64,000 bases of DNA from Bacteroidales bacterium (GCA_017632935.1 JAGBQJ010000013.1:5970-69969), one strand, 5' to 3'. Shown: positions 14,813 through 35,596, counted from the first letter of the stretch. Numbers and translations: made by a program. The notes: generated by a model not told the origin, from the sequence alone.

Positions 14813-14836
14813 GGTTATAGTGTATTTAGGTTAGTA

Positions 14837-18725: not shown

Positions 18726-18746
18726 AGTGTTGGCGTTTTGAGGCTT

Positions 18747-18754: not shown

Positions 18755-18757
18755 GTG

Positions 18758-18788: not shown

Positions 18789-18839
18789 GAGGGTTAGGCA
18801 ATGAGAGCTTTCAAGTAAGTAGATGCTTTAAGATAGCAG

Positions 18840-19870: not shown

Positions 19871-19943
19871 CACCAAAGAGGTCATTTGCAAGCCTTGTTT
19901 TGTGATTTTTTATAATAAGGTATTTTGCCTGACAATAATTGCT

Positions 19944-19951
19944 TATATTTG
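19944..19951 (+). promoter_or_regulatory. -7 box (TATATTTG), with a TTTG -33-like element at 19924-19927; candidate promoter of the 8-gene operon
   Basis: Matches TAnnTTTG. The spacing to the upstream TTTG is 16 nt. It implies a ~300-nt AT-rich leader before 20258. Confidence 0.4.
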
Positions 19952-20257
19952 CGGCATGAATTGGCGCGAATTGTAGGCGCAAGGATTTTTGTAATAACAA
20001 TCTAAACCGTTAAGAAATAAAGAAATACACAAATACAAACATAAGACATAGCAAAGCATAACGACAACTTTCTTCTGCTTTAAAAATTGCCAATTAATCA
20101 CGAAGAAAATCTCTTGAAATTGTCAGTATGCCCACCTATAGCGTGGGACTGGACTATTTTCTGGAGATTAGGGTTACGGCAATTACCCAAAGCAGCGGGA
20201 AACGGTTAGGTTTCACGCTTTTTTATTGTCGTTCAGAAAAATACAAACAAAAAAAAG

Positions 20258-21568
20258 ATGTATATGAAAAGGCCATTTAGAATAAAAACAATAAAGAGAG
20301 CCAGAAAATGGATGAAACATCAATACGATGTGATAGCGGTGTTGGCCGTATCTTGTGTGGCTATTCTGTCTTCTTGCTCTGGTGATATAAATTCAAATTT
20401 TGATTCCCATTTTACCAATGATGGTTATTTAATACAGGATAGCACAAAACAGGATAATAAAGTACCCTTGACAAAAGCAAAGTTTTATGTTGAGGTCTCT
20501 GGAAGTATGAATGGCTTTTTTAGAGCTGGACAGCCGACAGATTTCAAAAAAGATGTTTGGCAAATACTCAGTTATTATTCACCTATTGCGCCTGGCGTGA
20601 CTATTTTGACAAATAATGGTGATGAAGGTAAAACTTATGATTTGAGTAATTTCCAGACTCAAATGAACACTGGTGCTTTTGTTTCGACCGCTTCAACGAG
20701 AGTACCTTTGATGCTTCAATCTATTATTGATAATTTGGATGCGGATAACGGGGAGGTTGCAGTACTTATTTCAGATATGAAATACAGTCCTGTTGGGCAA
20801 GCTGCGCCCAAGGTGCTGTTGACACAATACAGCACTGATGTCAGCAAGATCTTTGGACAGTACGGTAAAGCTATAAGTCTGGTTTGCGCCACATCTAATT
20901 ATCTGGACAAAAAAGGAAATTCCATTTGCGATGCTTCGCCATATTATTTTCTGATAATTGGCAACGACAGCGGTGTTGCAGAAATGCGTGATGGTATTTC
21001 CACCCTATTAACCAATGCTGGCAGGTTCGTTGACAACATTGAGAGCGGATTTAATTATGGCGGGATTAAGGAGAGTTTCGGTATTCCGAAAAAATGTTTC
21101 CAGATGGATATAAACGAGCCAACATTTGTTGAGTATGAAGAGGCTGATTCTTACGACACCTGCATCATCAATTTAAAAGTGGATTTGGCACCTTATCGTT
21201 GGATTCTGACCGATGAAAGCTATTTTGCAAGAGCTTTCAAGGCAAAAACCCTCTACGGAGCCAACCTTGTTGTAGATGACGTGAACATTGTAGTAAAAAA
21301 CATCACTGACAAGCAGTTGAAACGTACAGCAGAGGCCACGGTAAGACTAAAGCTGTTCAATATGCCCACAGATTCCGATGTCATTGAATGGACATTAGAG
21401 TTGCCTGACACGGATTACACTTTGTTTGGACAATTCTGTGGCGCGACTGCCGAAGAAGATGTTACCAAATCATATTCCATAGAAGATTTCCTTGTTGGTA
21501 TGTTCTACGGTGGTGTGGTAAATACAACGCTTAATCCCAATTACATTTTAGTTTCAAAAAATAGTTAG
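20258..21568 (+). CDS. vWA-like lipoprotein (operon gene 1)
   Basis: The alternative start at 20312 gives the lipoprotein signal MKHQYDVIAVLAVSCVAILSSC. KFYVEVSGSMNGFF is a degenerate MIDAS (E-x-S-x-S) and VAVLISDMKYS is a vWA beta-4-like strand. Confidence 0.6.
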   Translation: MYMKRPFRIKTIKRARKWMKHQYDVIAVLAVSCVAILSSCSGDINSNFDSHFTNDGYLIQDSTKQDNKVPLTKAKFYVEVSGSMNGFFRAGQPTDFKKDVWQILSYYSPIAPGVTILTNNGDEGKTYDLSNFQTQMNTGAFVSTASTRVPLMLQSIIDNLDADNGEVAVLISDMKYSPVGQAAPKVLLTQYSTDVSKIFGQYGKAISLVCATSNYLDKKGNSICDASPYYFLIIGNDSGVAEMRDGISTLLTNAGRFVDNIESGFNYGGIKESFGIPKKCFQMDINEPTFVEYEEADSYDTCIINLKVDLAPYRWILTDESYFARAFKAKTLYGANLVVDDVNIVVKNITDKQLKRTAEATVRLKLFNMPTDSDVIEWTLELPDTDYTLFGQFCGATAEEDVTKSYSIEDFLVGMFYGGVVNTTLNPNYILVSKNS

Positions 21569-21573: not shown

Positions 21574-22017
21574 ATGAAATTACTGAAGCTGTATCAATGG
21601 ATCGCAGGAAAGTTGACCGAATTTTGCGCTCCATTCCAAAACAACGAGAGCTTGTATCAACAAGCCAGAGCCTTTTGGGGCAAGTTGGAAGGCATTTCAA
21701 CAATACTTTTAATCATCGCAGTGGTGATAGGTGTTTTGTTTGCCGTCATCTACTACAAGCCATACAACAACAAGCCAGGAAGACACTATACCCCCAAGTA
21801 TTGGGTTATTTTCCTGATTATAACATTTGTGGTGGCTTTTCTGTTGACATTGGGATTTGAATATATCTCAGTGGCACCACACTTAAAAGGCGCAATGTTG
21901 CTTGAAACTAAAATTGCACTTGGGAATGGAATCTATGCTTCAGCATTGTATTTCATTGTTTCGGTTTTGTGGTGCAACGCGCTACCGACTAACGCTTATC
22001 GATTGTTTGAATTCTAA
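21574..22017 (+). CDS. Small integral membrane protein, 3 TM (operon gene 2)
   Basis: Hydrophobic segments ISTILLIIAVVIGVLFAVIYY, YWVIFLIITFVVAFLLTLGF and IYASALYFIVSVLWCNAL. It starts 5 nt after gene 1. Confidence 0.65.
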   Translation: MKLLKLYQWIAGKLTEFCAPFQNNESLYQQARAFWGKLEGISTILLIIAVVIGVLFAVIYYKPYNNKPGRHYTPKYWVIFLIITFVVAFLLTLGFEYISVAPHLKGAMLLETKIALGNGIYASALYFIVSVLWCNALPTNAYRLFEF

Positions 22018-22029: not shown

Positions 22030-23427
22030 ATGAAAAAAGTATTTGTTTTTTGCATTGGAGGTACTGGCATTCGCGTGATGAAGAGCATCACGATGCTGAT
22101 GGCAAGCGGAATGAGTACCAGCGGTTTTACCGTTGTCCCTGTTATCCTTGACCCGCACTTGGATTTAGAGGAAAAGAAGAATTTGCACTCGTTGATAGAA
22201 TCATACGAGGAAATATATCGACACTCAGTCAACAATGGGACATCAACGTTGAATTCTCTTGATGGCTTTTTCAATTCTGAAATGCTTACCATCGGAGAAC
22301 TCAATGAACAACTCAATGACACCCAACAAGCGGCTGGAAACACTGAAAAGTTCCGTTCATATATCAACGTGGCCAACCTTGGTGCAGATAATGTGAACAA
22401 CTATTTCGTACAGACGCTGTTTTCAAATAAGAATCTAAACAATCCTTTGTCGGTCGGCTTCAAGGGGAATCCCAATGTCGGTACCGTAGTGCTCGGTGAA
22501 ATGATTGAGGGAGCGGATTGGTTCAAAGCGTTTAAGACCAAATGCGAGAAAGACGACAGGGTATTTATTATTAGCTCCATCTTTGGAGGCACTGGGGCTT
22601 CAGGTTATCCGCTGCTGGAGAAAAAGATTAGAGGAGCTTCTGATAATCCAACAGTTAAAAATGCACTGATGGGAGCAGTGACTGTGTTGCCGTACTACGG
22701 GCTAAAAGATCCTACGACAACGGGCAGTGACATTGACTCGGCTAACTTCTACACTAAGACAAAAGCGGCTCTTGCCTATTACCAGAACACTGTGCAGTCG
22801 GATTATCTTTATTACGCAGGAGAAAAGACTTTGAGGCAGGTCTATGAGAATGACGAAAAGAAGCAAGAGGACACCGCTAACTTCATTGAACTGGTTGCCG
22901 CATCAGCCTTGTTTGATTTTCTAAAGAGAGAAAGACCGGACAGAAAACAATATATGACCAGGGCAATTGACGATGACGTGGAGTCATTAGACCTTGTGAC
23001 GATGGGCAGTGGCTATAAGGAAATCGTCAAGTGTGTTGCCGACTATATGATTTTGAGAACCTTTATTCAAAATCTTCCCAACGAGAAATACTTCCCTTTG
23101 AAGAAGAACAGAGGACTTGATGGAGGTTTTTACAAAGATGCAGCATTCCAATCATTGGTGCGCTTTACTGAGAAATACTATCAATGGTATTATGAACTTT
23201 CGACGAACAATCGTGCGTTTGCTCCATTGCACTACGACAGCATTAAGCAGATGGATGGATGGGTAAAAACCATCGACCTTGACGCAAAGGATGATTCATA
23301 CTATCTGCTCCGAATGATTGAGGCCAGCAATAGATACACAAAGAAGGATCATAGCAACAAATTCAGGTTCTTCCTGCAATTCGCCTATGAAGCAATAAAT
23401 GGTTACACACAGAAAATAATGAAATAA
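22030..23427 (+). CDS. Tubulin/FtsZ-superfamily-like GTPase (FtsZl-1-like, putative; operon gene 3)
   Basis: N-terminal T1-like loop VFVFCIGGTGIRV and T4-like signature SSIFGGTGASG (nt 22585-22605; compare the tubulin signature [SAG]GGTG[SA]G). No obvious FtsZ C-terminal domain. Confidence 0.55.
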   Translation: MKKVFVFCIGGTGIRVMKSITMLMASGMSTSGFTVVPVILDPHLDLEEKKNLHSLIESYEEIYRHSVNNGTSTLNSLDGFFNSEMLTIGELNEQLNDTQQAAGNTEKFRSYINVANLGADNVNNYFVQTLFSNKNLNNPLSVGFKGNPNVGTVVLGEMIEGADWFKAFKTKCEKDDRVFIISSIFGGTGASGYPLLEKKIRGASDNPTVKNALMGAVTVLPYYGLKDPTTTGSDIDSANFYTKTKAALAYYQNTVQSDYLYYAGEKTLRQVYENDEKKQEDTANFIELVAASALFDFLKRERPDRKQYMTRAIDDDVESLDLVTMGSGYKEIVKCVADYMILRTFIQNLPNEKYFPLKKNRGLDGGFYKDAAFQSLVRFTEKYYQWYYELSTNNRAFAPLHYDSIKQMDGWVKTIDLDAKDDSYYLLRMIEASNRYTKKDHSNKFRFFLQFAYEAINGYTQKIMK

Positions 23428-23430: not shown

Positions 23431-26400
23431 ATGGCAAAAGTTGATTTAAATATTGTTGATAGAGGCACTAACAGTTCCGAATGGAAAGCAGAAGGAACGC
23501 CTTTGCAATCTGGCGACCTTGACAAAGTGCTTGAACAGAAGACCGACAATAGTGGTGCATTGAACTCGCTTCCCACACCTTTTGCCAGGTTTTTTGTCGC
23601 TCGCGAAGCTTTTAGAAGAGTCAATGAAGAGAAGCTGAATCCAAAGGAAGGGGCTGGCTTTGCCTATACGCAATTAGTTTCTGATATCCTTGATGTCTAT
23701 GAACTGTTGTTTAATCTGAAATACCACAAGAACAACACTTGGAAAGATGGTCAAAAGCTGGAGCTGAGAGAATGGAATAGAAAGGAGAATCTCGATTATC
23801 TCAAAGCGAAGATGCCTGTTCTATATAATTCTGTTGTAGATTACTACAAGACAGATATCCTCGAGGACAAACTGTATTTTCTCGTCTATACTGAGAATGG
23901 CAAAGAAGTGTTGTTGGCTTGCAGCTCCCCCATCACAGGCTTTGTCACACCGCCAGACATGGACAAGGCTGTTCTGAAGAAAGACAACACCGACACTATC
24001 TGTTTTACAGGTGAGCAATACCAAAACCTGCACATTAGGAGAAAATCAGGCGGGGAGTATTTCAGAGGTGATGTCAGACTGTTTGACAAGAGAGATGCTG
24101 AGTTTAAGAATTACATGTATTCAATGTTGTTTGGCACTGATACCGTTGACGAGAGATTTAAGGCCATCAAGGAATATGTGCGTAGTTTCAACAATGACCC
24201 AGAGATACGCAACGATTTTAGATTAAAGACAACTCCGGTGTTGACCGACCAGAATGACGGTTTGGTAATAAATGGGCTTTGCATACAGTCTTCAGATGAA
24301 ATTGATATCAACAGCTATTTCACTGACACCATGATTCGAGTACCTTATCGCATTTCGAGAGACACATTCAAATCGGTCGTTTATCAGAACGATGTTCAAG
24401 GTAGAAATTATGACTATTTGCTGCCTTTCAAGCCTGAAGTGATGAATCTGTTTGATGGAAAAGAACTTGACTCTGATGTACACATCAACAGAAATTCCGT
24501 AACGGTCACTTTACGCTATAATGGGAAGGAATACTCGAAAGAATACTCTCAAGACACCTTCCGTGCTGGTCAAGGTAGAATTGTTGACCTGCAAGGAGCG
24601 AAGATTAGCTTTGACCTTGGCATCTTCCCCAATATCCTATCCTATAAGGATGTCGAGAACAATTACTTCAAGGTGCTTGTGGTTGCAGCCGATGAAGATG
24701 CTGATGCCCCCAACTTCAATATCGACCAAATCAATCTTGCTTTTTTCAAGCAAGCTGAAAATGGTTGCAAGCAGATAAAAGAAGTTGTTCCTGAAGACAT
24801 GGCTGAATATGGCGTGGAGCCAGCAGCGGTACGTTCACGCCAAAAAACGGACGTAGAAGAAAGCGGCACCAAGTTCTATGAACTGTTTAACACGTCGTTT
24901 GACATGATTGAAATCAATGTCATGGGTGACACAGGTCTGTTGATGCCAGTATGGCAACACAGCCAAGCAAGCAATGAAACCTTTACCTATGCAATTGACC
25001 TTGGAACGTCCAATACATTTATGTCGCGTTGCAAGAATGACAGCCAAGGCAATCCGGACCTTAGCAGGAAGCCTGAACTCTTCAAGATGGATAAGACGAT
25101 GGTGAATTACATGCATGAGTATTCAGACGATACGCAGTATTCCATCACTCGACGCATAGAAGATTCGATTTTCAACAAGGCAAAAAAGAAAATCAAGACT
25201 GAATTTGTGCCAGCTGTCATCGATGGCAAGGACTATAGATTCCCCATCCGCACTGCTTTGTGTGGTATTCACAATAAGACCAAGAAGCCGAAATTGTTTG
25301 ACAACCACAACATCGCTTTCTTCTACGAGAAACTCATGGCGAACGACGACCAGGATGTGAACACCGACATCAAGTGGGAACAAGACGAGGACAAATTGCG
25401 CGTCTTTGTTAGAGAGCTGCTGCTCATCATCAAGTGCGATATTCTGCAAAGGAATGGCGACCTTGACAGAACCAATCTCGTTTGGTTCAGCCCATTGAGC
25501 TTTATGGGGAACACAAGAGAGGTTTATCAGAACATCTGGAACACTGAGCCAAAGAAAATACTGTTCATCCAGCCACAGCAAATCGTTCGCTATTCAGAAT
25601 CCGAGGCACCCTATTACTACTACAAGAAGATGGACTACATCAAGGATTCTGATGCCGTTACTGTCATCGATATTGGTGGTGGCTCGACTGATTTCGTGTA
25701 CTTCAAGGATAATGAGCCGCAAGTTGCCAATTCCGTCCATTTTGGATGCGATGTGCTCTGGGAAAATGGTTTCAATGCGTTTGCCAATGTTAGGGAGAAT
25801 GGTATATTCAAGAAATACGTTGACACTATTCGTTTCCAAAGGAAAGACCTTGAAGACTTGAATGAGTGCTTCAAGAATGTTGATTCCGTGAAGACCAAGG
25901 ATGTTATCAATTTCTGGCTTAGCAATGCCAAGGATTGTGACATCATCAAGTTCATGAGCCAGGACTTCAAACCCGTGTTTGCTTATCACTTAACAAGCAT
26001 CCTTTACTACATGGCCAATATGTACAAGGATAAAGGACTTGAAGCCCCGAGAACCGTGGTATTTAGCGGAAACGGCAGCAAGTACATCGACAATTTCATT
26101 TCGAGCGAAAGCAACATCCTGAAAGAAATTATTGATTTGATATTTGCGACAGTGTTTGGAGGAACGCATAATGTAAACATTAAGCTTCCTGATGAACGCA
26201 AGGAGTCGACCTGTTATGGTGGTTTGTATCGTGACAAGAACGCTCCGATAGTTAAAGATGTCGTTTACCAAGGCGATGTAACAAAGAGCTACGAAAAGGT
26301 GGGCGACATGAATAGCAACTTAGATTCGTTGAAATCTGTGCTGATGACCAAGTATAAGGATCTTGCTGCCTTATATAAGTCCGTCTTGGATTTGCTCAAA

Positions 26401-26592
26401 AAAGAGAAAATCATCGACGGGACTTCAGATACTCGTCGTTATGTCAGCAAGGCAGAGGAAGATATGGGTACACCATTCACTACCTACTACAAGACGCAAG
26501 TCAAGGAAAAGTATGGTGAAGAAGTTATCTATAACGATTCCGTGTTTTTCTTGCCCGTAATCAACAAGGTTTTTGAAATGACTAAAATCTAA
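23431..26592 (+). CDS. Large (1053 aa) protein with a C-terminal Hsp70/actin-like (ASKHA) ATPase domain (operon gene 4)
   Basis: Phosphate-1 motif YAIDLGTSNTF (nt 24991-), phosphate-2 motif VIDIGGGSTDFVYF (nt 25663-), adenosine motif VVFSGNGSKY (nt 26056-). The N-terminal ~500 aa were not recognised. Confidence 0.6.
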   Translation: MAKVDLNIVDRGTNSSEWKAEGTPLQSGDLDKVLEQKTDNSGALNSLPTPFARFFVAREAFRRVNEEKLNPKEGAGFAYTQLVSDILDVYELLFNLKYHKNNTWKDGQKLELREWNRKENLDYLKAKMPVLYNSVVDYYKTDILEDKLYFLVYTENGKEVLLACSSPITGFVTPPDMDKAVLKKDNTDTICFTGEQYQNLHIRRKSGGEYFRGDVRLFDKRDAEFKNYMYSMLFGTDTVDERFKAIKEYVRSFNNDPEIRNDFRLKTTPVLTDQNDGLVINGLCIQSSDEIDINSYFTDTMIRVPYRISRDTFKSVVYQNDVQGRNYDYLLPFKPEVMNLFDGKELDSDVHINRNSVTVTLRYNGKEYSKEYSQDTFRAGQGRIVDLQGAKISFDLGIFPNILSYKDVENNYFKVLVVAADEDADAPNFNIDQINLAFFKQAENGCKQIKEVVPEDMAEYGVEPAAVRSRQKTDVEESGTKFYELFNTSFDMIEINVMGDTGLLMPVWQHSQASNETFTYAIDLGTSNTFMSRCKNDSQGNPDLSRKPELFKMDKTMVNYMHEYSDDTQYSITRRIEDSIFNKAKKKIKTEFVPAVIDGKDYRFPIRTALCGIHNKTKKPKLFDNHNIAFFYEKLMANDDQDVNTDIKWEQDEDKLRVFVRELLLIIKCDILQRNGDLDRTNLVWFSPLSFMGNTREVYQNIWNTEPKKILFIQPQQIVRYSESEAPYYYYKKMDYIKDSDAVTVIDIGGGSTDFVYFKDNEPQVANSVHFGCDVLWENGFNAFANVRENGIFKKYVDTIRFQRKDLEDLNECFKNVDSVKTKDVINFWLSNAKDCDIIKFMSQDFKPVFAYHLTSILYYMANMYKDKGLEAPRTVVFSGNGSKYIDNFISSESNILKEIIDLIFATVFGGTHNVNIKLPDERKESTCYGGLYRDKNAPIVKDVVYQGDVTKSYEKVGDMNSNLDSLKSVLMTKYKDLAALYKSVLDLLKKEKIIDGTSDTRRYVSKAEEDMGTPFTTYYKTQVKEKYGEEVIYNDSVFFLPVINKVFEMTKI

Positions 26593-26597: not shown

Positions 26598-28208
26598 ATG
26601 CTTGTTATTTCATTTGTAGCGTTTGGCCTTTGCCTTTGCTTTCAACTAAAGTATTTTCTTGAAACAAGGAAGCAACGAGAGTTATACTATCATTTCTTCA
26701 AAAAGAAGCAGCCATACGATGTTAGTTTAACTGAAGTTAATACAGAAGTCTATACTCAGTTAGTGCAAGTAGGTGAAGAAGGTTCAGACTTAAATCAGCT
26801 TATTGAGGAGATTAACCACTATATTCTTAAAACCAAAGGCACTACTGATTTTGCTGTCATACAAAACAAGGTAGAGCGCAAGTTGAATATGCGGTATGAC
26901 CAATCTGTTGCTAAATTGTCGTTTCCAACCCATTTCGGTCTGATGGGAACCTTCCTGGGGGTTTTTATTGGAGTTTTAATGTTTATTATTGGCTTTGATA
27001 GTACAAATGGAATAACGGACAATTCAATAAAGAACTTGCTTGAGGGCGTTCTTGTCTCTATGCTAACCAGTTTATGCGGATTGGGTCTGACCACATGGAA
27101 TAATGCCAGGGCTGGAGAAGCGAGAAAGAAGATAGAAGAAGATAAGAATGAGTTCTATGATTTTGTACAGACAGAGTTGATGCCTTCGCTGGATGTTAGT
27201 ATGGTAGCTGCTATCAGTAAATTACATCAAACAGTTGACCGTTTTGAACCAGCATTTGACAGGGTTATCAATCGTTTCCAAACCACGTTTGACAATTGCA
27301 CAAAGGCATTTGGCGATAGCTTCGAAAAGAATGTTAGGGCTGTTGCTACTGCGGTAGATGTGATGGGTAAAAACATGGATAAAATCAATGAAAATATCGA
27401 CCTTCAAGAGAGACTCCTTGCTACATTTAAGAGTGGTGAGCTGGTGCAAGGACTTGACAGATACATTGAGGCATCCAACAACTTCGTCAGTATTACCCAA
27501 TCGCTCAATAAGTTTGAAGAGGCTCGCAGGATGATGTTGGCGGCCACGCAAGAGGCCATCAATCTTCAGAACGCATATAGTGACTCGTTGCAGGTTCCTC
27601 GTGAAGTTGCCGTGCGCATCAATCAGATACTGGATAGAATTAAAGACTTCGAGGAGAATATAAATCGCATCGGAGGTCAACTTGAAAGAAGGGATATACT
27701 TGGCAATGATGTTGTGAACAAATTACAGGAACAAATCAGTGGCATATCGAAAAAGGGCAAGATTGCGGACAAGTATTTGGAAATAGCTGATGGCCGGTTG
27801 GAGGATTTATACGCTCAACAAACCAAGGTAATAAACGAGATGAACAGGCGATATAGAGAAGCACTTGAAGGACACATAGACGGCTTTGAGAAGATGATTG
27901 TGCATCAAACCGAGGAGCTTGAAAAGCGTCATGGTGACTTTATGAAGGCCATTGAAGAGCGGCTGACCATTGAAGATGTGCGCCAAGAATTTGTGAATTT
28001 GGGCAAACTGAAGGACATTGATGGAAAGATGGCCGAAGTTTCAAAGCGTGTTCCTACTTCTGACGAAATACAAAAGGCTGTTCAAAAAGCCATGCAAGAT
28101 GCAGTTCAACCAATTCAGAAGGAATTGGATGAAATGAAGAAAGACTTTAGAAAGCAAATGGAAGAATCCAAATCTGGCGTTTTCGGAGGCCTGTTTGGTA
28201 GGCGTTGA
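26598..28208 (+). CDS. MotA/ExbB/ZorA-like membrane protein with a long C-terminal coiled-coil tail (operon gene 5)
   Basis: TM1 is at the N-terminus. A MotA-type TM pair follows: FPTHFGLMGTFLGVFIGVLMFIIG and LLEGVLVSMLTSLCGLGLTTWNNA. The remaining ~360 aa are E/K/L/Q-rich and heptad-like. Confidence 0.65.
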   Translation: MLVISFVAFGLCLCFQLKYFLETRKQRELYYHFFKKKQPYDVSLTEVNTEVYTQLVQVGEEGSDLNQLIEEINHYILKTKGTTDFAVIQNKVERKLNMRYDQSVAKLSFPTHFGLMGTFLGVFIGVLMFIIGFDSTNGITDNSIKNLLEGVLVSMLTSLCGLGLTTWNNARAGEARKKIEEDKNEFYDFVQTELMPSLDVSMVAAISKLHQTVDRFEPAFDRVINRFQTTFDNCTKAFGDSFEKNVRAVATAVDVMGKNMDKINENIDLQERLLATFKSGELVQGLDRYIEASNNFVSITQSLNKFEEARRMMLAATQEAINLQNAYSDSLQVPREVAVRINQILDRIKDFEENINRIGGQLERRDILGNDVVNKLQEQISGISKKGKIADKYLEIADGRLEDLYAQQTKVINEMNRRYREALEGHIDGFEKMIVHQTEELEKRHGDFMKAIEERLTIEDVRQEFVNLGKLKDIDGKMAEVSKRVPTSDEIQKAVQKAMQDAVQPIQKELDEMKKDFRKQMEESKSGVFGGLFGRR

Positions 28209-28219
28209 TACTGAGCATT

Positions 28220-29041
28220 ATGGACGGAAACAATAATGGTTCGTTTTGGCCGAGTTACGTGGACGTTATGACAACGCTGTTTGCCATAATGCTCGTGTTG
28301 TTTGCCGTGTCTTTCAGTCGATTCAAAATCAAAGAGAAAGAATTGACAGAAAAAGTCGAAGAGCTTAGAGATACGGAAACAAGGCTTCAGGAGATTGTGG
28401 ATGAATACGACGATATTCTGAAGATTTATTCCACTGTTGGAAAAATCGACGCGACAGACTATTTCGGCTACAACAAGCCCTATCTGAAACATTTGTTCCA
28501 GATAAATGTGGAGTATCAGACGAAGGAATATGCCATCAATAAGCTGAAGCTTGATTTGACTGATGTAAACGCGGCCAACAAAAAAAGAGATAGCATCGTT
28601 GCCGCTGGTGAGTTGATAAAAAACACCATTCTTGAATTGAATAGTAGCGTTCCTGATACTATAGAGAATAACATCAAATTCCTCGTTATCATCGAGGGTC
28701 AATCTTCAAGGATTCCTTTCAACGAAGGGCCATGGAGAAACAATTACACCCTCTCCTATCTAAGGGCACAATACCTGAATGCGTTTTGGAAAGAACATGG
28801 CATTGATTTGAATAGCATTCCGAGATGTGAACTTATTATTTCTGGTAGTGGCGAGGAAGGTGTACCGAGAGAAGTGCCAGATAAAACAAGGCTCACTCAA
28901 TTATTCCCCAATAGCGTCGATTACCAAAAGCAATGGCATAAGATAGAAGAAAGGAATCAGCGTTTCTTAATAAACATCGTGCCAGTGTTGGGTAATATCG
29001 ACAGCACAAGAGAAAAGATTGAAAAGATAAAAGGCAAGTAG
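28220..29041 (+). CDS. MotB/ZorB-like protein with an OmpA-like peptidoglycan-binding domain (operon gene 6)
   Basis: FWPSYVDVMTTLFAIMLVLFAVS contains the conserved plug/TM Asp (nt 28262-28264). C-terminal FLVIIEGQSS...NNYTLSYLRAQYL is OmpA-like. A TTG at 28205 is an alternative start. Confidence 0.7.
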   Translation: MDGNNNGSFWPSYVDVMTTLFAIMLVLFAVSFSRFKIKEKELTEKVEELRDTETRLQEIVDEYDDILKIYSTVGKIDATDYFGYNKPYLKHLFQINVEYQTKEYAINKLKLDLTDVNAANKKRDSIVAAGELIKNTILELNSSVPDTIENNIKFLVIIEGQSSRIPFNEGPWRNNYTLSYLRAQYLNAFWKEHGIDLNSIPRCELIISGSGEEGVPREVPDKTRLTQLFPNSVDYQKQWHKIEERNQRFLINIVPVLGNIDSTREKIEKIKGK

Positions 29042-29042: not shown

Positions 29043-30206
29043 ATGGGTGCGTTATGGTCTGAAGATTACGAAAAGGTGTTTGGCAAGCCAACAAAGTGGT
29101 CGCTTTTTTCGGAGGACGAAGAGGCGTATGAGGCTTTCCGTAAGACCATCATAAACTCACCTCATTACGTGTACGATAAGGATAAGCTGCCTTTTACAGG
29201 TGTGAAAGTCTATGGTTACGATTTGTATTTATTGAAGCTTACTATCGACCAGAAAAAAGCAGAGGGCAAGAAACTGTTTTATATCAAGGACGAAACACCT
29301 GGTTTAGCCAAGGTTCTTGCATTTGGCTATTTTAACAAAAACAGTCAATTGTTTTATTTGCTTGCCAACAGCTTGATAAGAAAGACGGATTTCCAACAAA
29401 AGATGAAGAAGGATTCGTCTCTTTATTGGCCAGTCTACAGGTTGCAAGCTAAAAGCGAGATAAGAAAATGCGATGCCGATACGAAGGATGAACAAGGCCG
29501 AGCCTTGCAATTAGAGTTGTTTCAACCAGAAGGCTATCGCATGATTGAGGACGTGGATTGTTCCGCATCCTTAGCTGCAGCTTATGCGCTTGGTCAGGAA
29601 GCTGATTTTACGAAGTGGAAAGGGATGGATGGCAAGACACTCGCGGAAACATATCCCTTTTATAGCGGAAGCTATTCTGAGCTTATTGATATAAAAACTA
29701 CTTGGAGCAAACTTCGTTCTCTGAAGGAAAAGCCCACACCGATTGTTGAAGAAAATGGCACAGACAAGCTATCGTTGTTTAATAAGATCATCACTCCTCT
29801 TATTCAGCACAAAGAGAAAGCAGCAGCCAAAAAAGTTGCACATAAGCGCAAGGAGTTGACCGAAATACAATGCTTTTTGATAGACGAAGGGCAAAGTGAA
29901 AAGTACAGCGCAAGGGGATGCTATTATGTGAAAGAAGAAACCATCAAAGTTTTTGCTGGTGCGGTGTTATCCACCGATGTTTCGTCTACGCTTAGGTATT
30001 CACTTGCGGACTACCAACGTAGATCTTTCATCAAGGAGCATTGCTCAACTAAGAAGTCAAAATATACACTGAAAGAAGATTATTACTTTGATTCGGCAGA
30101 CACTGCTGCACTTTATGTGATGGGACAGATTGTCGAAGGATTATCGGTGTGGATGACAATTGATGGCAAATCATTGGAGGAAAGAATCAATGAAGAAGTA
30201 TATTAG
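29043..30206 (+). CDS. Hypothetical protein with two DUF4357-like motifs (operon gene 7)
   Basis: Internal duplication: DCSASLAAAYALGQEADFTKWKGMDGKTLAE and FDSADTAALYVMGQIVEGLSVWMTIDGKSLEE. These resemble the SPSxAAxxxxGxxxNGxxxWKxxxGKxL tail of DUF4357. It starts 1 nt after gene 6. Confidence 0.5.
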   Translation: MGALWSEDYEKVFGKPTKWSLFSEDEEAYEAFRKTIINSPHYVYDKDKLPFTGVKVYGYDLYLLKLTIDQKKAEGKKLFYIKDETPGLAKVLAFGYFNKNSQLFYLLANSLIRKTDFQQKMKKDSSLYWPVYRLQAKSEIRKCDADTKDEQGRALQLELFQPEGYRMIEDVDCSASLAAAYALGQEADFTKWKGMDGKTLAETYPFYSGSYSELIDIKTTWSKLRSLKEKPTPIVEENGTDKLSLFNKIITPLIQHKEKAAAKKVAHKRKELTEIQCFLIDEGQSEKYSARGCYYVKEETIKVFAGAVLSTDVSSTLRYSLADYQRRSFIKEHCSTKKSKYTLKEDYYFDSADTAALYVMGQIVEGLSVWMTIDGKSLEERINEEVY

Positions 30207-31047
30207 TATAGCTTTGGTCTTTGTGGTTGTGCTGCTTATTATGGCTTTGATTATTCGAGGTTCGAATGATTCAGAAGAGGTGTATGATGGGTTCGTACAA
30301 CAGGTTGAACAAAACGACACGCCTTCGTCGAGCAATCCTGTTGGACAACTGCGGACAGGACTGGAAATCCCATGCTATGATTTTGTGGTAGATGAACAGA
30401 TAATGGCTAAGCGAGGATATACTGTTTCGTTTAATCCAGATACCAAGCTGCCCAACTGGGTTGCGTATGAGCTGACTGCCGATGAGACAGATGGGCCTTG
30501 GACAAGGAAAGGTTTAAGGTTCGTCCCTGACCCATATTGTAAAGGAGAACAGGCAGACAGAGAAGACTATAGAAACTCGGGGTATTCACATGGTCATTTG
30601 GCTCCTGCGGGAGATATGAAATGGGACAGCTTGGCCATGATTGAGAGTTTCTATTACACGAATTGCATACCACAAGATGCCAATTTGAATACAGGAAAAT
30701 GGCACCAGCTGGAGGAAAAAACTAGAAAACTTGCAAGAGAATATGGCAACGTCTATATCGTTACGGGGCCAGTTATTCAATATGATTCAATAGAGAGAAT
30801 TGGGAATCACGGAATACCTGTGCCTATAGCTTGTTACAAGGCTCTTATGATTCGCAACAAGGAACGCTACTCGGCTATAGGGTTCGTCATGCTCAATGGA
30901 GGCGAACAGCGATCAATGAAAGAATGTGCCTGTACTGTGGATGAGCTTGAAGCGTTGCTTGGCTTGAACATGTTTTACAATCTGCCTAATGACATAGAAG
31001 AGGGCGTTGAAAGCAAAGTAACTTGGGCCGATTGGAATCTGCGGTAG
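30190..31047 (+). CDS. Signal-anchored DNA/RNA non-specific endonuclease (NucA/EndoG beta-beta-alpha-Me family; operon gene 8)
   Basis: MKKYISIALVFVVVLLIMALII anchor. Catalytic region YSHGHLAPAGD (nt 30589-30597 = HGH) and NCIPQDANLNTGKW. It overlaps gene 7 by 17 nt. Confidence 0.75.
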   Translation: MKKYISIALVFVVVLLIMALIIRGSNDSEEVYDGFVQQVEQNDTPSSSNPVGQLRTGLEIPCYDFVVDEQIMAKRGYTVSFNPDTKLPNWVAYELTADETDGPWTRKGLRFVPDPYCKGEQADREDYRNSGYSHGHLAPAGDMKWDSLAMIESFYYTNCIPQDANLNTGKWHQLEEKTRKLAREYGNVYIVTGPVIQYDSIERIGNHGIPVPIACYKALMIRNKERYSAIGFVMLNGGEQRSMKECACTVDELEALLGLNMFYNLPNDIEEGVESKVTWADWNLR

Positions 31048-31085: not shown

Positions 31086-32150
31086 TCATCGTCCATCTTC
31101 AACAAGTCCCAACTCATCAATCATGTGTTGTATGCTCGGCAGCGTTTCCATCATTAGCTGCAAATCGGTTTTCGGCTTGCCGAATAACCATTGATATTCA
31201 GCCTCTGGCTTTGGTGGGACATAACCGCCTTTCAATTCATCAATAAACACATCAGCGATGTCAATCTTGGCGGCTCGTTGCTCGGGAGACGCATGCTTCT
31301 CCAAAGCGTCTGAGACGGTTATTTTACAGAACGCGAGCGTTTCGGCTTGCTTCTTCCAAACCTCATAAGCGTCAACGTCGGGGAACAAGATAACCGTTCT
31401 ACCAGTCAAAACTTTCATTTTTTCGACTGGCATCTGTGATTTGCCTCCTGTGGCAAGCCAAAGAAATTGAGGGTGGTATGCTGCACCAATCAAGGCGGTT
31501 TTCTCGCTCTCAACGACTGCAACAACTTTGTCCTTGTTCATTGACCAATTCAGCAAGTGCTCACCAAACAAGCATTGCGTCACCTCCCAATCATCAGGCA
31601 AAAGACCGTCTTTCTTCATCTTGGCATGAACCCAATTCACACCATACCCATCTTTGGTGCGGTGGCCATCTTCGCCATACTTCATTATCTTGCCCGACCT
31701 CACTCTGCCGTTGATGTCGATTTGCCAGAAGATGACATCTCTGTCTTTGGTGGCGCCGAGTGCATACAGTTCGCCCAGCCTTTTTATTGTCGGACTGTCA
31801 AGGGTGTTTCTGTCGAACAAGCCACAGAGGAACAAGATAAAGTCGCTGTTGTAGCTTGCCGACTGAAGCACATACCTGAAGGGGATGGTGCAAAGTGGCT
31901 TGGGAGGCTTGGGCTGAGGCCGTTTCTTGGCGGTAATGTTCTTAGGGCGTTGTTCGCCTTGATGGTCTTGGAAGTATTCGCTTGGGGTGTAATGGTAACA
32001 GCAACTGCTTTCATGGTCGCATCGGCCACAAGTTGGGTCGATGGGCTGGTTGTCATCGTCAACATAGTACGTGAAAGAATGAGGGTCGTGGCAATTAGGG
32101 CACTCGTGGCGTGAGGCTCTGCCGTGGTATTTTTCAAGTTGATAGTTCAT
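31086..32150 (-). CDS. DNA primase-like protein (N-terminal zinc finger plus Toprim-like domain)
   Basis: The start is set at Met 32150 (MNYQLEKYHG). Cys/His cluster: HECPNCHD...CGRCDHESSCCYH. Toprim-like motifs: VVAVVESEKTAL and VILFPDVDAY. Confidence 0.65.
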   Translation of the reverse strand: MNYQLEKYHGRASRHECPNCHDPHSFTYYVDDDNQPIDPTCGRCDHESSCCYHYTPSEYFQDHQGEQRPKNITAKKRPQPKPPKPLCTIPFRYVLQSASYNSDFILFLCGLFDRNTLDSPTIKRLGELYALGATKDRDVIFWQIDINGRVRSGKIMKYGEDGHRTKDGYGVNWVHAKMKKDGLLPDDWEVTQCLFGEHLLNWSMNKDKVVAVVESEKTALIGAAYHPQFLWLATGGKSQMPVEKMKVLTGRTVILFPDVDAYEVWKKQAETLAFCKITVSDALEKHASPEQRAAKIDIADVFIDELKGGYVPPKPEAEYQWLFGKPKTDLQLMMETLPSIQHMIDELGLVEDGR

Positions 32151-32166
32151 TGGCTTTTCTCCTTCT

Positions 32167-32236
32167 TGTCCCGCTGTCCCATCTGTCCCACTGTCCCACG
32201 AATGGTACATTTGGGACGGTGGGACACTTGGGACAC
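32167..32236. repeat. Iteron-like array: 4x TGTCCC(A), then 3x inverted (T)GGGAC, spaced 8-9 bp
   Basis: Direct copies start at 32167, 32175, 32184 and 32192. Inverted copies start at 32213, 32221 and 32230. The array lies in the 89-nt gap between the ATPase stop and the primase start. Confidence 0.65.
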
Positions 32237-32239
32237 TTC

Positions 32240-33415
32240 TTATTTAAGTCCAAGTTTCTTGACGATACGTTGAACTGTGGACTTGCTTATGCCTAACTGC
32301 TCCGCGATTTCACGGAAAGAAAGGCCTTGGCTACGTAGTTCCATGACGGTGTTTTCAAGTTCCGAAACATCGTTTTCGGAACGCTCTTTAAGGTGTTCTC
32401 GTTCGGTTGCAAATTCCATAGGAACGAATTGCAGGAATGCGTTGATTTGCTCTAATTGACACACAATCACATTATCTGCACCATACTCAAATTCACCATA
32501 ACGGACTTTCATTTGCTTTATATAACGCAGTCCAGCATCCTTTGCACTCCTGCCGATAGAGAAGCAACTATCGAAAAAATTGAATAGTTTCTTGCTCCCC
32601 GCCACATCGTTTTGCGTTATTGGGCTTGAAAGACTGCGTTTGGGAGTGTGAGCGATGATAAGCAAGGACAAATCGTACTTCTTTTTTAATTTGATGAGTT
32701 TCATCATGAATTGCCCTGCGATATCGCCTTTCTCGCTGTTGCTGCAGATCCATGTCAGATTGTCGATGATTATCACTTTTGCTCTTGTTTGTAGCGCAAC
32801 AGCCTCTATCTGGTTAATGATGTCGTCCTCGAAGGTTTTGACATCCAACAATTCTTTATCAATATCACTTCGAAGAAAGTTATCCGAAAAATGATAAGTA
32901 TTTCCCTCCTTATCCGTGTATCGGAGTTGGAACTGCTTGTCAGAAAGCTCAAAATCGAAGTACAACACTCTTTGCATTTGCGCTATGCTTTCGGCAATCT
33001 GGACGGCATAGATGGATTTGCCCAAATTGCTGTCGGCGAACAGACAGCAGACTTCACCCTCATACCATAACGACAACCATAGTGGCTTGGGGTCAGGACG
33101 TTGCTTCGCCTCCATCAAGGTTTGGTTGGCTGACTTGATACGAAACATTCCAACAATTTCGGGAACCGCATCCTTCACGGCTTCCGACTTCTCCAAATCC
33201 TCCTCGATGGCCTTTAAGATACTCGTGTTGTTCTCCTTTTCCATGTCGTTGCTCGTGGTTGTTGTAATTGTTGAAAGAACTCTCGTTGGCGACAACGATT
33301 TTGTAACATTTACAGCAATGGATTGGGATTTATTTTGTACCTTTGCAACACCTTCATAAAGATTCATTGATTTGGCGGCTGCGCTTGGCGTGGCCGCTAT
33401 TCCTATTATTTTCAC
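32240..33415 (-). CDS. RecA-like/AAA ATPase (replicative helicase or loader-like) with a C-terminal HTH
   Basis: Walker A FADSNLGKSIYAVQIA, Walker B KVIIIDNLTW, C-terminal HTH LSFREIAEQLGISKSTVQRIVKKLG. Confidence 0.65.
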   Translation of the reverse strand: MKIIGIAATPSAAAKSMNLYEGVAKVQNKSQSIAVNVTKSLSPTRVLSTITTTTSNDMEKENNTSILKAIEEDLEKSEAVKDAVPEIVGMFRIKSANQTLMEAKQRPDPKPLWLSLWYEGEVCCLFADSNLGKSIYAVQIAESIAQMQRVLYFDFELSDKQFQLRYTDKEGNTYHFSDNFLRSDIDKELLDVKTFEDDIINQIEAVALQTRAKVIIIDNLTWICSNSEKGDIAGQFMMKLIKLKKKYDLSLLIIAHTPKRSLSSPITQNDVAGSKKLFNFFDSCFSIGRSAKDAGLRYIKQMKVRYGEFEYGADNVIVCQLEQINAFLQFVPMEFATEREHLKERSENDVSELENTVMELRSQGLSFREIAEQLGISKSTVQRIVKKLGLK

Positions 33416-33756
33416 GCCTTGCCTCCTTTCTTTGAGTAATTGTCATTGAGTAGTTGCTCGATGTCTCGTCGTCGGTAATAGATTTTGTTATTTATCCGGG
33501 TATAAGGCAGAGTGCCATTGCTTCGTAGTGTCTGCAAGGTGCGCAGACTGACGTGTAGAGCGAGCATGACATCCTGATTATCAACCCAATCCTTCAAGCC
33601 GTTTTCCTCACTGTCGCTGTCATCGATAACGAGGTCGGGATAGGCCTCCCGAAGGGCTTTAAGGCAAGGGCACTGTTCAAGTGCTTGCCTGAAGAGGTCT
33701 TTGTGGCCATTGGCAGTGTTTGCTATGCCGATGCCGACGAATTTAGAGCTGCTCAT
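33412..33756 (-). CDS. Excisionase-family/AlpA-like HTH protein
   Basis: VMLALHVSLRTLQTLRSNGTLPYTRINNKIYYRRRDIEQLL (HTH_17-like). It overlaps its neighbours by 4 nt. Confidence 0.65.
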   Translation of the reverse strand: MSSSKFVGIGIANTANGHKDLFRQALEQCPCLKALREAYPDLVIDDSDSEENGLKDWVDNQDVMLALHVSLRTLQTLRSNGTLPYTRINNKIYYRRRDIEQLLNDNYSKKGGKA

Positions 33757-34058
33757 TTGGGGCCTCCTTTCTGTAAGATGTGGTTGATGTCGCTCTGTCT
33801 GTAGCGGTCGTTGCCACCTATCCTTATTGGGACAAGGTAGCCTCTCTGCTTCCAGCGATAAAGCGTAGCCTTGGAGATTTCGAGCATCTCCATGACCTTC
33901 TCACCGGTCAGGTAGGCTTCGGCTTTGCTCTCGCTGATACTCTGCTCCAGCTCGGCTTTGGTTTCAGCAATCAACTGGGTGGCAAAGTCCTTTAATTCCG
34001 CTGCCGTGATTGTGATGTTGATTGCGGGTGCGCATTGCGCCAATTCTTGAATATTCAT
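33753..34058 (-). CDS. Excisionase-family HTH protein
   Basis: VMEMLEISKATLYRWKQRGYLVPIRIGGNDRYRQSDINHIL (HTH_17-like). Confidence 0.7.
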   Translation of the reverse strand: MNIQELAQCAPAINITITAAELKDFATQLIAETKAELEQSISESKAEAYLTGEKVMEMLEISKATLYRWKQRGYLVPIRIGGNDRYRQSDINHILQKGGPK

Positions 34059-34276
34059 ATTTCAATGAATTTTAGGTTACGCCCTCTTTTTTTTGCTTCG
34101 GGCTTTGCAGCAATCCGCATCATTGCGTTTTGCGATTTCAAAGTTAGGGTGAGGAAAGTGAGATAGGGTGTGGAAAATGAAAAAATACAACCGATTAAAT
34201 TGCTATAATTCAATCGGTTGCATTTATATTGAAACGAGAAAGTGAGAAAATTATGATAGCCTGTGAGGATGAGCTA

Positions 34277-35584
34277 TCAACCTATTCCATTATCTTTCAT
34301 TTTTTTCTTTAATGTTGTTTCGAGATCCGCTGATTTATCAGTGTTGTACTTATTCATTTCTTTTTCCGATAAACCTGCGGAATTGCAGATGGCAATATAC
34401 CATTCTTTGTTGAAGCAGGGTTGGATGCATTTGATAAACCCCTTGAACTTGGTGATTTTACGAACCCAGAGTGATTCGCCTTTTTTTAATTTGGGAACAC
34501 AGCAGCTTGTTATGTTGTTAACAAAGTCTTGTTTGGTTAAAAGCAAATTACTAACGACACCATCTTCAACAAGACAATCGTACAAATCGGGCAAGGCGTT
34601 TAAGATTTTGTCGTTTAAGATGTTGGGGCTATCCGATGTTTTTAGAGGAGGCGTTTCGAATATAGGTAAATGCTCTATCAAATCCCAGTTGTCAACTTCA
34701 AAAAACACACCCTCTGCAGGATTCCATTCCCTTCGCAAATACACTCCTGTTTTCTGTTGATATTCGTTTAAGTCGAGGCCATTCTGAATCAACACGTCAT
34801 ACAGACCTTTTGCGAATTTATTCATGTCGTTAAGCAAACCACGTAAAACACGTTCTATTGAATCTGGATCGTCTTTTCCGTGATAGCTGGTACCCGTACA
34901 AAGTAACCTGATAAACTTTTGAGATTCTTTGGTTGGGATAGGAGGTCTCAACACTTCACATAATTCCTTAAAAGGCAGCAACAACGAGCAAATATATTGG
35001 TCTGTTTCTGATGGTGTTTTGCAGCTTTCAATGTGTCTTCTTATTTCGTAGGTCAATTCTGACACTGCTGCCATATTACGATATGAATCCCTTTGTTTGA
35101 GAATAAGTTTTTGCGGCTTCGGCCTCACTTTTCTCGTACCATGCTTGAGACCAATGAAAGCTATACATTCATGTGCCAGTTCCTCAAAAGCCACAAGGGA
35201 GTCATTTACTGATGATTTAGGTTCTTTTTCCTTTACCCACTTTTGAAAGTAGTTTATTATGCCTTGGACTTGATAGGCTGCTTCGTGGATTCTAAACATT
35301 CCTCTGGTAGCACCTGTACAATACTTCCTCCATACTGGCATTAACTTTTCGAAGATTTCAACGCCAAGTACATAATCGTCTGTGTCGATAATAAGGTCAC
35401 ACAGGGTTTCAAGTGCTTTACTAAGCTTTCCCAACGCTCCATCGACATATAGTTGACACTTTATATTGTAACCCTCGTCAGTACTGATATAGGCCACATT
35501 ATCATCAATGGTTTCAAGTGCCTTGAATATGATAGGCTTCTGTTCTTCCGTTATCTTCAGTATTTGACTCTTGGTGTATTCCAT
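34277..35584 (-). CDS. Hypothetical protein (435 aa), island core
   Basis: Long ORF immediately downstream of the integrase with ordinary amino-acid composition. No motif was recognised. Confidence 0.6.
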   Translation of the reverse strand: MEYTKSQILKITEEQKPIIFKALETIDDNVAYISTDEGYNIKCQLYVDGALGKLSKALETLCDLIIDTDDYVLGVEIFEKLMPVWRKYCTGATRGMFRIHEAAYQVQGIINYFQKWVKEKEPKSSVNDSLVAFEELAHECIAFIGLKHGTRKVRPKPQKLILKQRDSYRNMAAVSELTYEIRRHIESCKTPSETDQYICSLLLPFKELCEVLRPPIPTKESQKFIRLLCTGTSYHGKDDPDSIERVLRGLLNDMNKFAKGLYDVLIQNGLDLNEYQQKTGVYLRREWNPAEGVFFEVDNWDLIEHLPIFETPPLKTSDSPNILNDKILNALPDLYDCLVEDGVVSNLLLTKQDFVNNITSCCVPKLKKGESLWVRKITKFKGFIKCIQPCFNKEWYIAICNSAGLSEKEMNKYNTDKSADLETTLKKKMKDNGIG

Positions 35585-35596
35585 AATCTTCTCCTA

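Follow-up and report, generated by a model that had tools for sequence, protein, structure and literature searches.

A ZorAB-like stator pair encoded with tubulin-like and ASKHA NTPases in a mobile cassette of Bacteroidales

A string of eight genes on an integrative element of a Bacteroidales bacterium encodes a predicted ion-driven motor of the kind known from the Zorya immune system, together with a different set of fixed partners that includes a tubulin-like GTPase and an actin/Hsp70-like ATPase. The string, whose genes are here designated A to H, lies in a stretch of 64,000 nucleotides (GCA_017632935.1, JAGBQJ010000013.1:5970-69969), which at its full length is called the window and from whose first letter positions in it are counted. 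Judged from sequence comparison, genes E and F are a ZorAB-like stator pair that constitutes a family of its own and belongs neither to ExbBD nor to TolQR or GldLM. As to what such an arrangement could serve, it seems to us probable, if only by a little, that the cassette specifies a Zorya-like, envelope-sensing motor, which would drive cytoskeletal-type NTPases and variable effectors.

The ZorAB-like stator pair

The original prediction, made from the window alone, described a protein of 536 amino acids (aa) with one N-terminal transmembrane (TM) segment and a MotA/ExbB-type TM hairpin, and an open reading frame (ORF) of this kind is indeed found at 26598-28208 (gene E). Hydropathy gives three TM segments (residues 1-21, 111-137 and 147-165), the peptides GLMGTFLGVFIGV and SMLTSLCGLGLTTWNNA corresponding to TM2 and TM3 respectively, and the further peptide quoted at the time, FWPSYVDVMTTLFAIML, is present in the translated ORFs of the pair. 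An AlphaFold2 (AF2) model of E, built from 66 diverse homologues with a predicted local distance difference test (pLDDT) score of 76.8, places TM1 at residues 2-31, a beta-hairpin at 42-55 (strands 42-47 and 50-55) together with two helices, TM2 at 109-135 and, after a 5-residue loop, TM3 from residue 141, from which helices with short breaks continue up to residue 525. The long tail is thus predicted to be helical, as had been proposed, but the accompanying idea that it is especially rich in E, K, L and Q did not hold, these residues making up 32% of the tail vs 31% of the N-terminal part. A charged, amphipathic character and, over most of its segments, a significant hydrophobic periodicity of 3.5-3.6 residues mark the tail.

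The residues on which ion conduction depends in Zorya have their counterparts in the pair. T118 and S158 of E are invariant across the 66 family sequences and align with T147 and S184 of ZorA (HMMER alignment to E. coli ZorA, 8qyh_A), which constitute the ion-selectivity filter touching ZorB D26 and are needed for Zorya function (PMC11946911). Similarly, the base of the tail (residues 184-272) matches positions 265-354 of the PADLOC ZorA1 profile and, when the family profile is compared with PDB, residues 279-361 of 8vvn_C. Homologues of E are numerous, 1249 being recovered in one search and 954 clusters at 50% identity in a second, 703 of these with E-values <=1e-10, and the ZorAB-like E family therefore comprises at least 703 clusters at 50% identity; these counts, together with the invariant key residues, argue that genes E and F are real.

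The ORF of gene F opens with TTG at 28205 and ends at 29041, and the ATG at 28220 yields a 273-aa product. The predicted partner of this length, with an N-terminal MotB-type TM segment and its Asp, is accordingly recovered, hydropathy giving one TM segment and Asp15 being invariant. The motif FWPSYVD-x-MT, which includes D15, is invariant in 20 close loci, the Asp being retained in distant homologues, and since this motif aligns with FWISYADLMT of ZorB, D15 is the equivalent of ZorB D26. The C-terminal half of F bears NNYTLSYLRA, within which the motif N174-N175-x-x-L178-S-x-x-R182-A is invariant, and N175, L178 and R182 are spaced as are N152, L155 and R159 among the ZorB residues Y151, N152, L155 and R159, which bind peptidoglycan (PMC11946911). 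The earlier remark that GQSS replaces the usual GHTD in the OmpA-like fold is also borne out, EGQSS being present and the correspondence visible in an alignment to B. subtilis MotB (6ysl). An N-terminal TM helix with Asp followed by a C-terminal N-x-x-L-S-x-x-R-A motif is an architecture of the MotB/ZorB type, and the best matches of F are ZorB1 (PADLOC, 1.9e-9) and, in PDB, ZorB (8qyd_F). The OmpA-like match is weak (TIGR03350 type_VI_ompA at 0.0037 in NCBIfam; OmpA at 0.008 in the paralogue of locus L035 only).

For the placement of E among stators, family hidden Markov models and a profile of the TM domain without its tail were applied because a Foldseek search with the monomer was unable to split ZorA from ExbB and TolQ. 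In PADLOC, E matches ZorA1 (2.5e-8), ZorA2 (3.5e-6) and ZorA3 (2.5e-5), and among the 66 members of the E family ZorA1 matches 23 and ZorA2 20-21. In NCBIfam, E is matched by ZorA_1, ZorA_2 and ZorA_4 at 1.6e-6 to 1e-4, and across the same 66 members ZorA_2 matches 31 and ZorA_4 15 (best 3e-12), with 10 for ExbB and 6 for TolQ. The whole-family profile retrieves from PDB the type I ZorA of Shewanella (8vvn_C, 1.3e-6) and ZorA of E. coli (8qyd_A, 1.8e-4). Among A subunits of 5:2 motors, the tail-less profile finds ZorA chains only (8vvn_C 2.9e-5, 8qyh_A 0.0095), with no ExbB, TolQ, MotA, PomA or GldL in PDB at an E-value <=10, and neither the Pfam, NCBIfam and PDB sequence searches nor the 50 best Foldseek matches contained GldL or GldM. 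The original assignment of the pair to a ZorAB-like class, as opposed to ExbB/ExbD, TolQR or GldLM, thus agrees with the PADLOC, NCBIfam and PDB profile searches, in which ZorA and ZorB came out best. Two outcomes named beforehand as telling against that assignment, namely clustering with other stators and a tail that is not helical, did not occur in the profile searches and the AF2 model.

Could the pair nevertheless be an ordinary paralogue of ExbBD, TolQR, MotAB or GldLM, serving transport, envelope integrity or motility? We regard this as very improbable. Foldseek does set ExbB (9ddo_A, 2.9e-3, TM-score 0.52) and TolQ beside ZorA, E shares with ExbBD and TolQR its overall fold over the N-terminal ~230 residues (Foldseek 2.9e-3 to 1e-2) as well as a GLxGT signature within TM2, and a minority of the E family weakly matches the ExbB and TolQ models, as counted above. 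Yet F has the MotB/ZorB architecture, whereas ExbD and TolR lack an OmpA-like domain, and the E tail of ~365 aa has no equivalent in those families, ExbB and TolQ being without a long tail. TonB, TolA and Pal are absent from the operon, and neither their genes nor flagellar or Gld genes occur in its vicinity. GldM, in turn, has a long periplasmic part, and the pair gave no match to it or to GldL. To this may be added the restriction of the tail-less profile to ZorA in PDB and the failure of Pfam MotA_ExbB to match E.

Certain results of the same searches weigh against a close kinship with Zorya. Every ZorA and ZorB score falls far under the curated threshold (NCBIfam bits: ZorA_1 26.8 vs 190, ZorA_2 22.2 vs 100, ZorA_4 21.4 vs 500, ZorB1 19.7 vs 400). 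The AF2 monomer model of E, in Foldseek, ranks ExbB, ZorA and TolQ alike at ~3e-3, which confirms the superfamily and leaves the family unseparated. Neither Pfam MotA_ExbB in the E nor Pfam OmpA in the F of the window was detected. Since the scores lie so far below the family cut-offs, we place the pair in a separate ZorAB-like family, outside Zorya types I-IV. One protein of the E family also matches weakly the NCBIfam model 'antiphage_ProA' (NF058533.1, 1.9e-5), whose source system could not be traced.

Cassette partners, synteny and known systems

Genes A to H constitute a single co-directional string among the window ORFs, and the junctions from A to F are only a few bases long (D ends at 26592, E starts at 26598). 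Gene A has a single N-terminal hydrophobic segment and an invariant lipobox Cys40, and its invariant pattern E79-x-S81-G-S83-M ... T147 ... D173 reads like the metal ion-dependent adhesion site (MIDAS) motif of a vWA domain. Gene B is conserved directly 3' of A in all loci, and a Pfam scan gave no family match for it. The extents of these genes, and of the element backbone that follows them, are listed in Table 1.

Table 1. Genes of the cassette and the adjoining element backbone, in window positions
Feature	Position	Strand	Description	Basis
Gene A	20258-21568	+	Lipoprotein with vWA/MIDAS-like motif; 436-aa ORF, likely start Met19 (20312)	Lipobox, motif
Gene B	21574-22017	+	Small membrane protein, 147 aa, ~3 TM	Hydropathy
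Gene C	22030-23427	+	Tubulin/FtsZ-superfamily GTPase, 465 aa, FtsZl1 / Pfam Tubulin_2 type	Motifs, Pfam, AF2 and Foldseek
Gene D	23431-26592	+	1053 aa; C-terminal half ASKHA (actin/Hsp70/Ppx-type) ATPase, N-terminal ~500 aa without assignment	Motifs, Pfam
Gene E	26598-28208	+	ZorA-like A subunit, 536 aa: 3 TM, small cytoplasmic beta-hairpin domain, ~365-aa helical tail	Profiles, AF2 model
Gene F	28220-29041	+	ZorB/MotB-like B subunit, 273 aa: TM helix with Asp15, putative OmpA-like peptidoglycan-binding motif	Profiles, conserved residues
Gene G	29043-30206	+	Soluble protein, 387 aa: family-specific N-terminal part, C-terminal DUF4357; hypervariable accessory	Pfam, PADLOC
Gene H	30160-31047	+	Membrane-anchored or secreted DNA/RNA non-specific endonuclease (NucA type); likely start ATG 30190	Pfam
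Element backbone	31086-37033	-	Zn-ribbon/DUF6371 primase-like, AAA_25+HTH, HTH_17 x2, one gene without family, tyrosine integrase	Pfam matches

The fold of gene C was settled by its AF2 model and Foldseek because profile and hhalign searches were uninformative, the family profiles of C and A finding nothing useful among PDB sequences. The model (pLDDT 81, predicted template modelling score 0.86) is compact and globular, and the top 50 PDB matches in Foldseek are all tubulin, FtsZ or CetZ (best 2.3e-4). The nucleotide-binding loops T1 (CIGGTG), T3 (GFKGNPNVG) and T4 (FGGTGASG) are invariant, and among 60 members of the C family Pfam Tubulin matches 57 and Tubulin_2 48. The GGTG of the T1 loop is the FtsZl1 signature, IGLGGTG being shown in the FtsZl1 alignment of 2010. 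An hhalign comparison of the C family with an approximate E. coli FtsZ aligned T3-T4 at 32% identity over 53 columns with a probability of 1.9%, and was not used as evidence.

In gene D the motifs D523-x-G-T, D747-I-G-G-G-x-x-D and G880-x-G-S are invariant and correspond to the ASKHA motifs known as phosphate-1, phosphate-2 and adenosine. Pfam Ppx-GppA matches D at 28.2 bits (cut-off 27) and 11 of 13 family members, and the PDB matches, which are weak, are best to exopolyphosphatase, FtsA and MreB. In one Prevotella metagenome-assembled genome (MAG; locus L012, 6762-9917) the D homologue has an in-frame stop, which could reflect either a pseudogene or faulty assembly.

The close set consists of 27 loci from species-representative genomes, namely Bacteroidales MAGs of rumen and gut, a few of them labelled as other taxa and probably mis-binned. 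All 27 share one gene order, A-B-C-D-E-F, which persists where E is only 22-27% identical (L028/L029, L031, L032/L033), the six proteins there measuring ~440, 145, 490, 1030-1166, 570-610 and 210-240 aa. Because this order is kept in every close locus, across such divergence and with tiny gaps, we consider E and F coupled to A-D. It has nonetheless to be asked whether two independent neighbours have been taken for one system, E-F (with G and H) being a minimal Zorya-like defence with a nuclease and A-D a separate tubulin/ASKHA system. We think this improbable, since A-F remain neighbours, in one order and on one strand, throughout the close loci and in the distant loci that were examined, and chance proximity is unlikely to outlast so much divergence and so many insertion sites. 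What speaks for it is the occurrence of the parts on their own. In Spirosoma sp. KUDC1026 (L036, CP056032.1 7801-16897) A-B-C-D are present and are followed by a 461-aa signal-peptide/TM protein and then an aspartyl protease, no homologue of E or F being found there; in Parabacteroides distasonis (L035) E- and F-like genes occur without A-D; and in L034 (GCA_034691575.1, 80-5376) a 669-aa E-like gene is separated from an F-like gene by two unrelated genes of 238 and 571 aa.

Compared with Zorya, the pair has in common a 3-TM A subunit with Thr in TM2 and Ser in TM3, a membrane-proximal beta-hairpin domain, a long helical tail with a homologous base, a B subunit with TM Asp and putative peptidoglycan-binding motif, a B gene directly after the A gene, and carriage on mobile islands. 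Unlike Zorya types I-III (structures 8qyd, 8vvn), it scores below the cut-offs, is accompanied by no ZorC/D, ZorE or ZorF/G, and has a tail of ~365 aa where that of E. coli ZorA has 507 aa; its fixed partners, which lie upstream and are of another kind, are a lipoprotein with a vWA-like motif, a small TM protein and two NTPases, namely a tubulin-like GTPase and an ATPase of the ASKHA class. The want of a Zorya effector, remarked in the original prediction for the genes downstream of the pair only, was upheld by PADLOC, which matched no ZorC/D/E/F/G model to the eight operon proteins. The hosts differ too: in one survey those of Zorya types I-III were mainly Proteobacteria and Campylobacter genera (PMC11890865), whereas the host phylum of the cassette is Bacteroidota.

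A second relation is to the operons of FtsZl1, a family defined in 2010, whose vWA and OmpA neighbours were noted at the time, the operons being predicted to constitute a 'membrane remodelling system' (Makarova and Koonin, PMC2875224). In Deinococcus these operons read hyp(478)-hyp(109)-FtsZl1(1070)-MotA/TolQ/ExbB(411)-OmpA(201), as in DR_0540 to DR_0536, and in cyanobacteria vWA-FtsZl1-B7(549)-MotB(230) (PMC2875224, Additional file 5). Common to them and the cassette are a tubulin GTPase with GGTG T1 loop and Tubulin_2 similarity, upstream proteins of ~420-480 and ~110-150 aa, and downstream MotA-like and MotB/OmpA-like genes, whose roles are filled by E and F in a comparison of layout and not of E, A or B homology. 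The likeness may extend to vWA, which has an intact MIDAS there and in gene A is represented by the motif, with no profile match. The cassette differs in that C, at 465 aa, lacks the coiled-coil/helical C-terminal domains of the 900-1100-aa FtsZl1 proteins and is accompanied by an additional ASKHA ATPase of 1053 aa, so that C plus D stand where a single long FtsZl1 protein stands there. The paper of 2010 drew no link to Zorya, which was then unknown (PMC2875224).

This relation underlies the rival to which we would give most room, namely that the cassette has no part in immunity and remodels the envelope or membrane in the manner proposed for FtsZl1, the motor powering a tubulin-like/actin-like cytoskeletal assembly and a periplasmic vWA lipoprotein, possibly for vesicles, surface trafficking or adhesion. 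We hold it to be unlikely. The Deinococcus and cyanobacterial layouts closely parallel A-B-C/D-E-F (PMC2875224), C has the GGTG T1 motif and a Tubulin_2 match, membrane or periplasmic proteins make up half of the cassette, and the flanks are mostly housekeeping genes; the Agl-Glt machinery of Myxococcus offers a loose analogue in combining a TolQR-like motor with MreB and the vWA lipoprotein CglB. These points are opposed by the location of the cassette on integrative and conjugative elements at variable insertion sites, by the appended nuclease and protease genes, the hypervariability of G and the paralogous stator pair found with DarT and NADAR, and also by the proximity of E and F to the immune ZorAB and not to TolQR or AglRS and by the absence from C of the domains that define canonical FtsZl1. 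If the cassette were non-immune it would still be an uncharacterised motor-cytoskeleton machine. It could also suggest what the FtsZl1/vWA/OmpA operons do, a literature search having found no functional study of them since the description of 2010.

Thirdly, the combination of tubulin-family, HSP70/ASKHA-family and vWA proteins recalls the DO-GTPase/GAP1 conflict systems, which are built round one or two TRAFAC DO-GTPases with GAP1 and in which tubulin, HSP70 and vWA, often with TM components, are predicted to form NTP-dependent assemblies (Kaur et al. 2020, PMC7159879). Reports of them come mainly from Firmicutes and Actinobacteria and include no stator of the MotAB/ZorAB type (PMC7159879). 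By contrast with them, A-H contain no P-loop GTPase, an absence that is based on the P-loop, no Walker A motif having been found in any of the eight proteins, and no GAP1 or FNIII was recognised in the cassette, which was not searched with GAP1 or DO-GTPase profiles. Because it shows neither Zor effectors nor the long architecture of FtsZl1 nor a recognised DO-GTPase/GAP1, the cassette is not a member of a described type; nor is it categorically new, being a Zorya-like motor with a new partner set. As a separate observation, the distant cassette of L032 and L033 is directly adjoined by a cluster (13904-19684 and 9722-15502 respectively, - strand) of genes for HSP70, GrpE, a protein of 202 aa and a double-AAA ATPase of 896 aa, which recalls the HSP70/GrpE themes of the 2020 survey.

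Mobility, variable outputs and a possible mechanism

The cassette lies within a low-GC block at ~20.0-37.2 kb of the window (GC 0.39-0.47 vs ~0.53 in the flanks, GC scan), which is closed by a tyrosine integrase adjoined by an HTH_17 pair, AAA_25+HTH and Zn-ribbon/DUF6371 primase-like genes (Pfam). This backbone is an integrative element and genes A-H are its cargo. Backbones of the same type occur in L031, where the cassette is beside an integrase, and in L035. In human-gut loci (L037-L039) the whole of A-H stands directly 3' of the conjugative-transposon (CTn) genes for TraM, DUF4138 and TraG coupling protein, and the human-gut allele of C, identical in sequence to a protein of Phocaeicola vulgatus, appears in 745 collection blocks. 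Insertion sites vary between genomes; in L028 the cassette has ThiF/dehydrogenase genes on one side and the NQR operon on the other, and over a distance of 10 kb no element genes accompany it. A plasmid collection searched with E gave one distant match only, and none from the Deinococcus deserti plasmid.

This context raises the alternative that the cassette serves the element itself, in its maintenance, transfer or entry exclusion. TubZ-type tubulin-like and ParM-type actin-like NTPases are the classic motors of DNA segregation, and here NTPases of tubulin fold and ASKHA fold are present beside an integrase/primase-type element in the window and directly 3' of TraM, DUF4138 and TraG genes for coupling to a type IV secretion system in the CTn loci. 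We nevertheless judge such a service decidedly improbable. The cassette of L028 does without nearby element genes, the repeat scan of the window revealed no centromere-binding adaptor or repeat array, and integrated elements need no partition. Moreover, we know of no role for a peptidoglycan-anchored stator, a lipoprotein or a nuclease in the known segregation systems (TubZRC, ParMRC), which also counts against it.

The genes that follow F are the variable part of the string. Gene G, which matches Pfam DUF4357 (1.2e-10) and the PADLOC candidate PDC-S14 (7.4e-16), comes after F in 21 of 25 loci and ranges in length from 175 to 475 aa. When the window is compared with the near-identical MAG contig L001, DNA identity is 99.6-99.9% for A-F and 99.4% for H, but only 70-80% for G (29043-30206 vs L001 12446-13645), the middle part of which cannot be aligned. 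An AAA_25 gene of the backbone, J (32240-33415), is likewise only 77% identical to its counterpart in L001. The divergence of G and J suggests hot spots of allelic replacement in an otherwise near-identical element, and replacement of the single gene G suggests the pattern that conflict systems show in their genes for specificity or effectors. Gene H, with a strong match to Pfam Endonuclease_NS (4.1e-48) and a single N-terminal hydrophobic segment, is downstream in 15 of 25 loci and also in the Phocaeicola-type CTn loci L037-L039; in distant cassettes a DA1-like peptidase or an aspartyl protease stands in for G and H.

The stator family has itself been re-used. In Parabacteroides distasonis (L035, NZ_OY725823.1 7713-11835) four genes packed closely together on an integrase/toprim element encode DarT (PF14487, 4.5e-30), a DUF6939/NADAR-like protein, an E-like protein of 498 aa and an F-like protein. 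Over residues 65-358 the E-like protein has 26.5% identity to E (tblastn 3e-17). For the F-like gene RefSeq gives a start (11239) that cuts away the TM Asp, the true ORF running from 11191, beginning MPRNRSNTFWLSYSDLMT and keeping the Asp. The co-operonic DarT implies that the stator family was re-used with a recognised defence effector, on the evidence of this single record; the likeness to DarTG ends there, neither DarT nor NADAR being present in the window. Taken together, mobile cargo, varying sites, variable genes after F, the divergence of G and the link to DarT and NADAR are the grounds on which we read the cassette as a conflict system.

On the reading of a Zorya-like envelope-sensing motor, E would form a ring, contributing three TM helices, the Thr/Ser ion filter, the membrane-proximal beta-hairpin domain and the long cytoplasmic helical tail, and F would be the axle, with its TM helix bearing the essential Asp and its putative periplasmic peptidoglycan-binding domain; the complex would probably have a 5:2 stoichiometry and be driven by protons. 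Such a motor would stay idle in the inner membrane until a disturbance of the envelope, by phage or by other entry of foreign DNA, caused F to engage peptidoglycan and ions to flow, a step at which sensing may be aided by A, the vWA-like lipoprotein of the periplasm, and by B in the membrane. E and its tail would then turn, and the tail, by contacting them, could recruit or switch on the tubulin-like GTPase C and the ASKHA ATPase D. The NTP-dependent assembly of C and D, conceivably by polymerisation, might in turn localise or license the variable outputs, which would be G and the NucA-type H here and proteases in distant relatives.

A further step would be to see in the cassette a new immune class, directed against phages or mobile elements, in which a wall-anchored motor senses a breach and gates a tubulin-like and actin/Hsp70-like scaffold for nuclease or protease effectors, the stator being an exchangeable sensor that has also been wired to DarT. 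This wider reading we put forward tentatively, as a possibility about which we remain rather doubtful.

To the reservations on family placement must be added others that concern the system as a whole. The vWA label of gene A is motif-based, no Pfam, NCBIfam or PDB profile match having been obtained for it. The coupling of A-D with E-F is not obligatory, since each of the two occurs without the other (L036, L035). The nuclease domain of H may be periplasmic or secreted, because an anchor or signal precedes it, and in that case it would be a poor fit to a cytoplasmic effector of the Zorya kind. When 116 flanking proteins from 23 loci were compared with Pfam they proved mostly housekeeping, with no enrichment of defence families; that the flanks differ by locus establishes mobility, and not clustering with defence genes. 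Finally, our search of the literature found no experiment on, or description of, a tubulin/actin-like/ZorAB-like cassette.

To our knowledge Zorya is the sole immune system that senses by means of a 5:2 ion-driven motor. The cassette bears on how far the principle of the motor as sensor reaches and on what a rotating tail can couple to, since it presents a natural experiment in which the same kind of motor is combined with wholly different fixed partners from the two great superfamilies of cytoskeletal NTPases. That a Zorya-type motor should be hard-wired to tubulin-like and actin/Hsp70-like NTPases is likely to surprise specialists. The cassette is abundant, and it is carried on conjugative elements of Bacteroidales that dominate the human gut and the rumen; the phage-host biology of gut Bacteroidales, for example that of crAss-like phages, is poorly understood.

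Window layout and neighbouring sequences

When attachment sites were sought for the cassette-bearing island, only direct repeats of chance size turned up, no tRNA was found at its ends, and an Rfam scan of 17-39 kb of the window found no family. Between the last host-like gene and gene A lies a region of ~1.5 kb (18780-20257) with a GC of ~0.53, in which the ORFs are GC-biased and appear spurious. It contains a 23-nt tandem duplication at 18985-19030, is 94% identical to L001 at the DNA level, and has no match in Rfam.

A second low-GC block (51626-59845, + strand, GC 0.34-0.42) resembles, read by eye, a restriction-modification cluster, with a putative 622-aa methyltransferase with DPPY motif, a 1008-aa methyltransferase-like protein with NPPW motif, a protein of 227 aa and a putative restriction subunit of helicase type with 883 aa.

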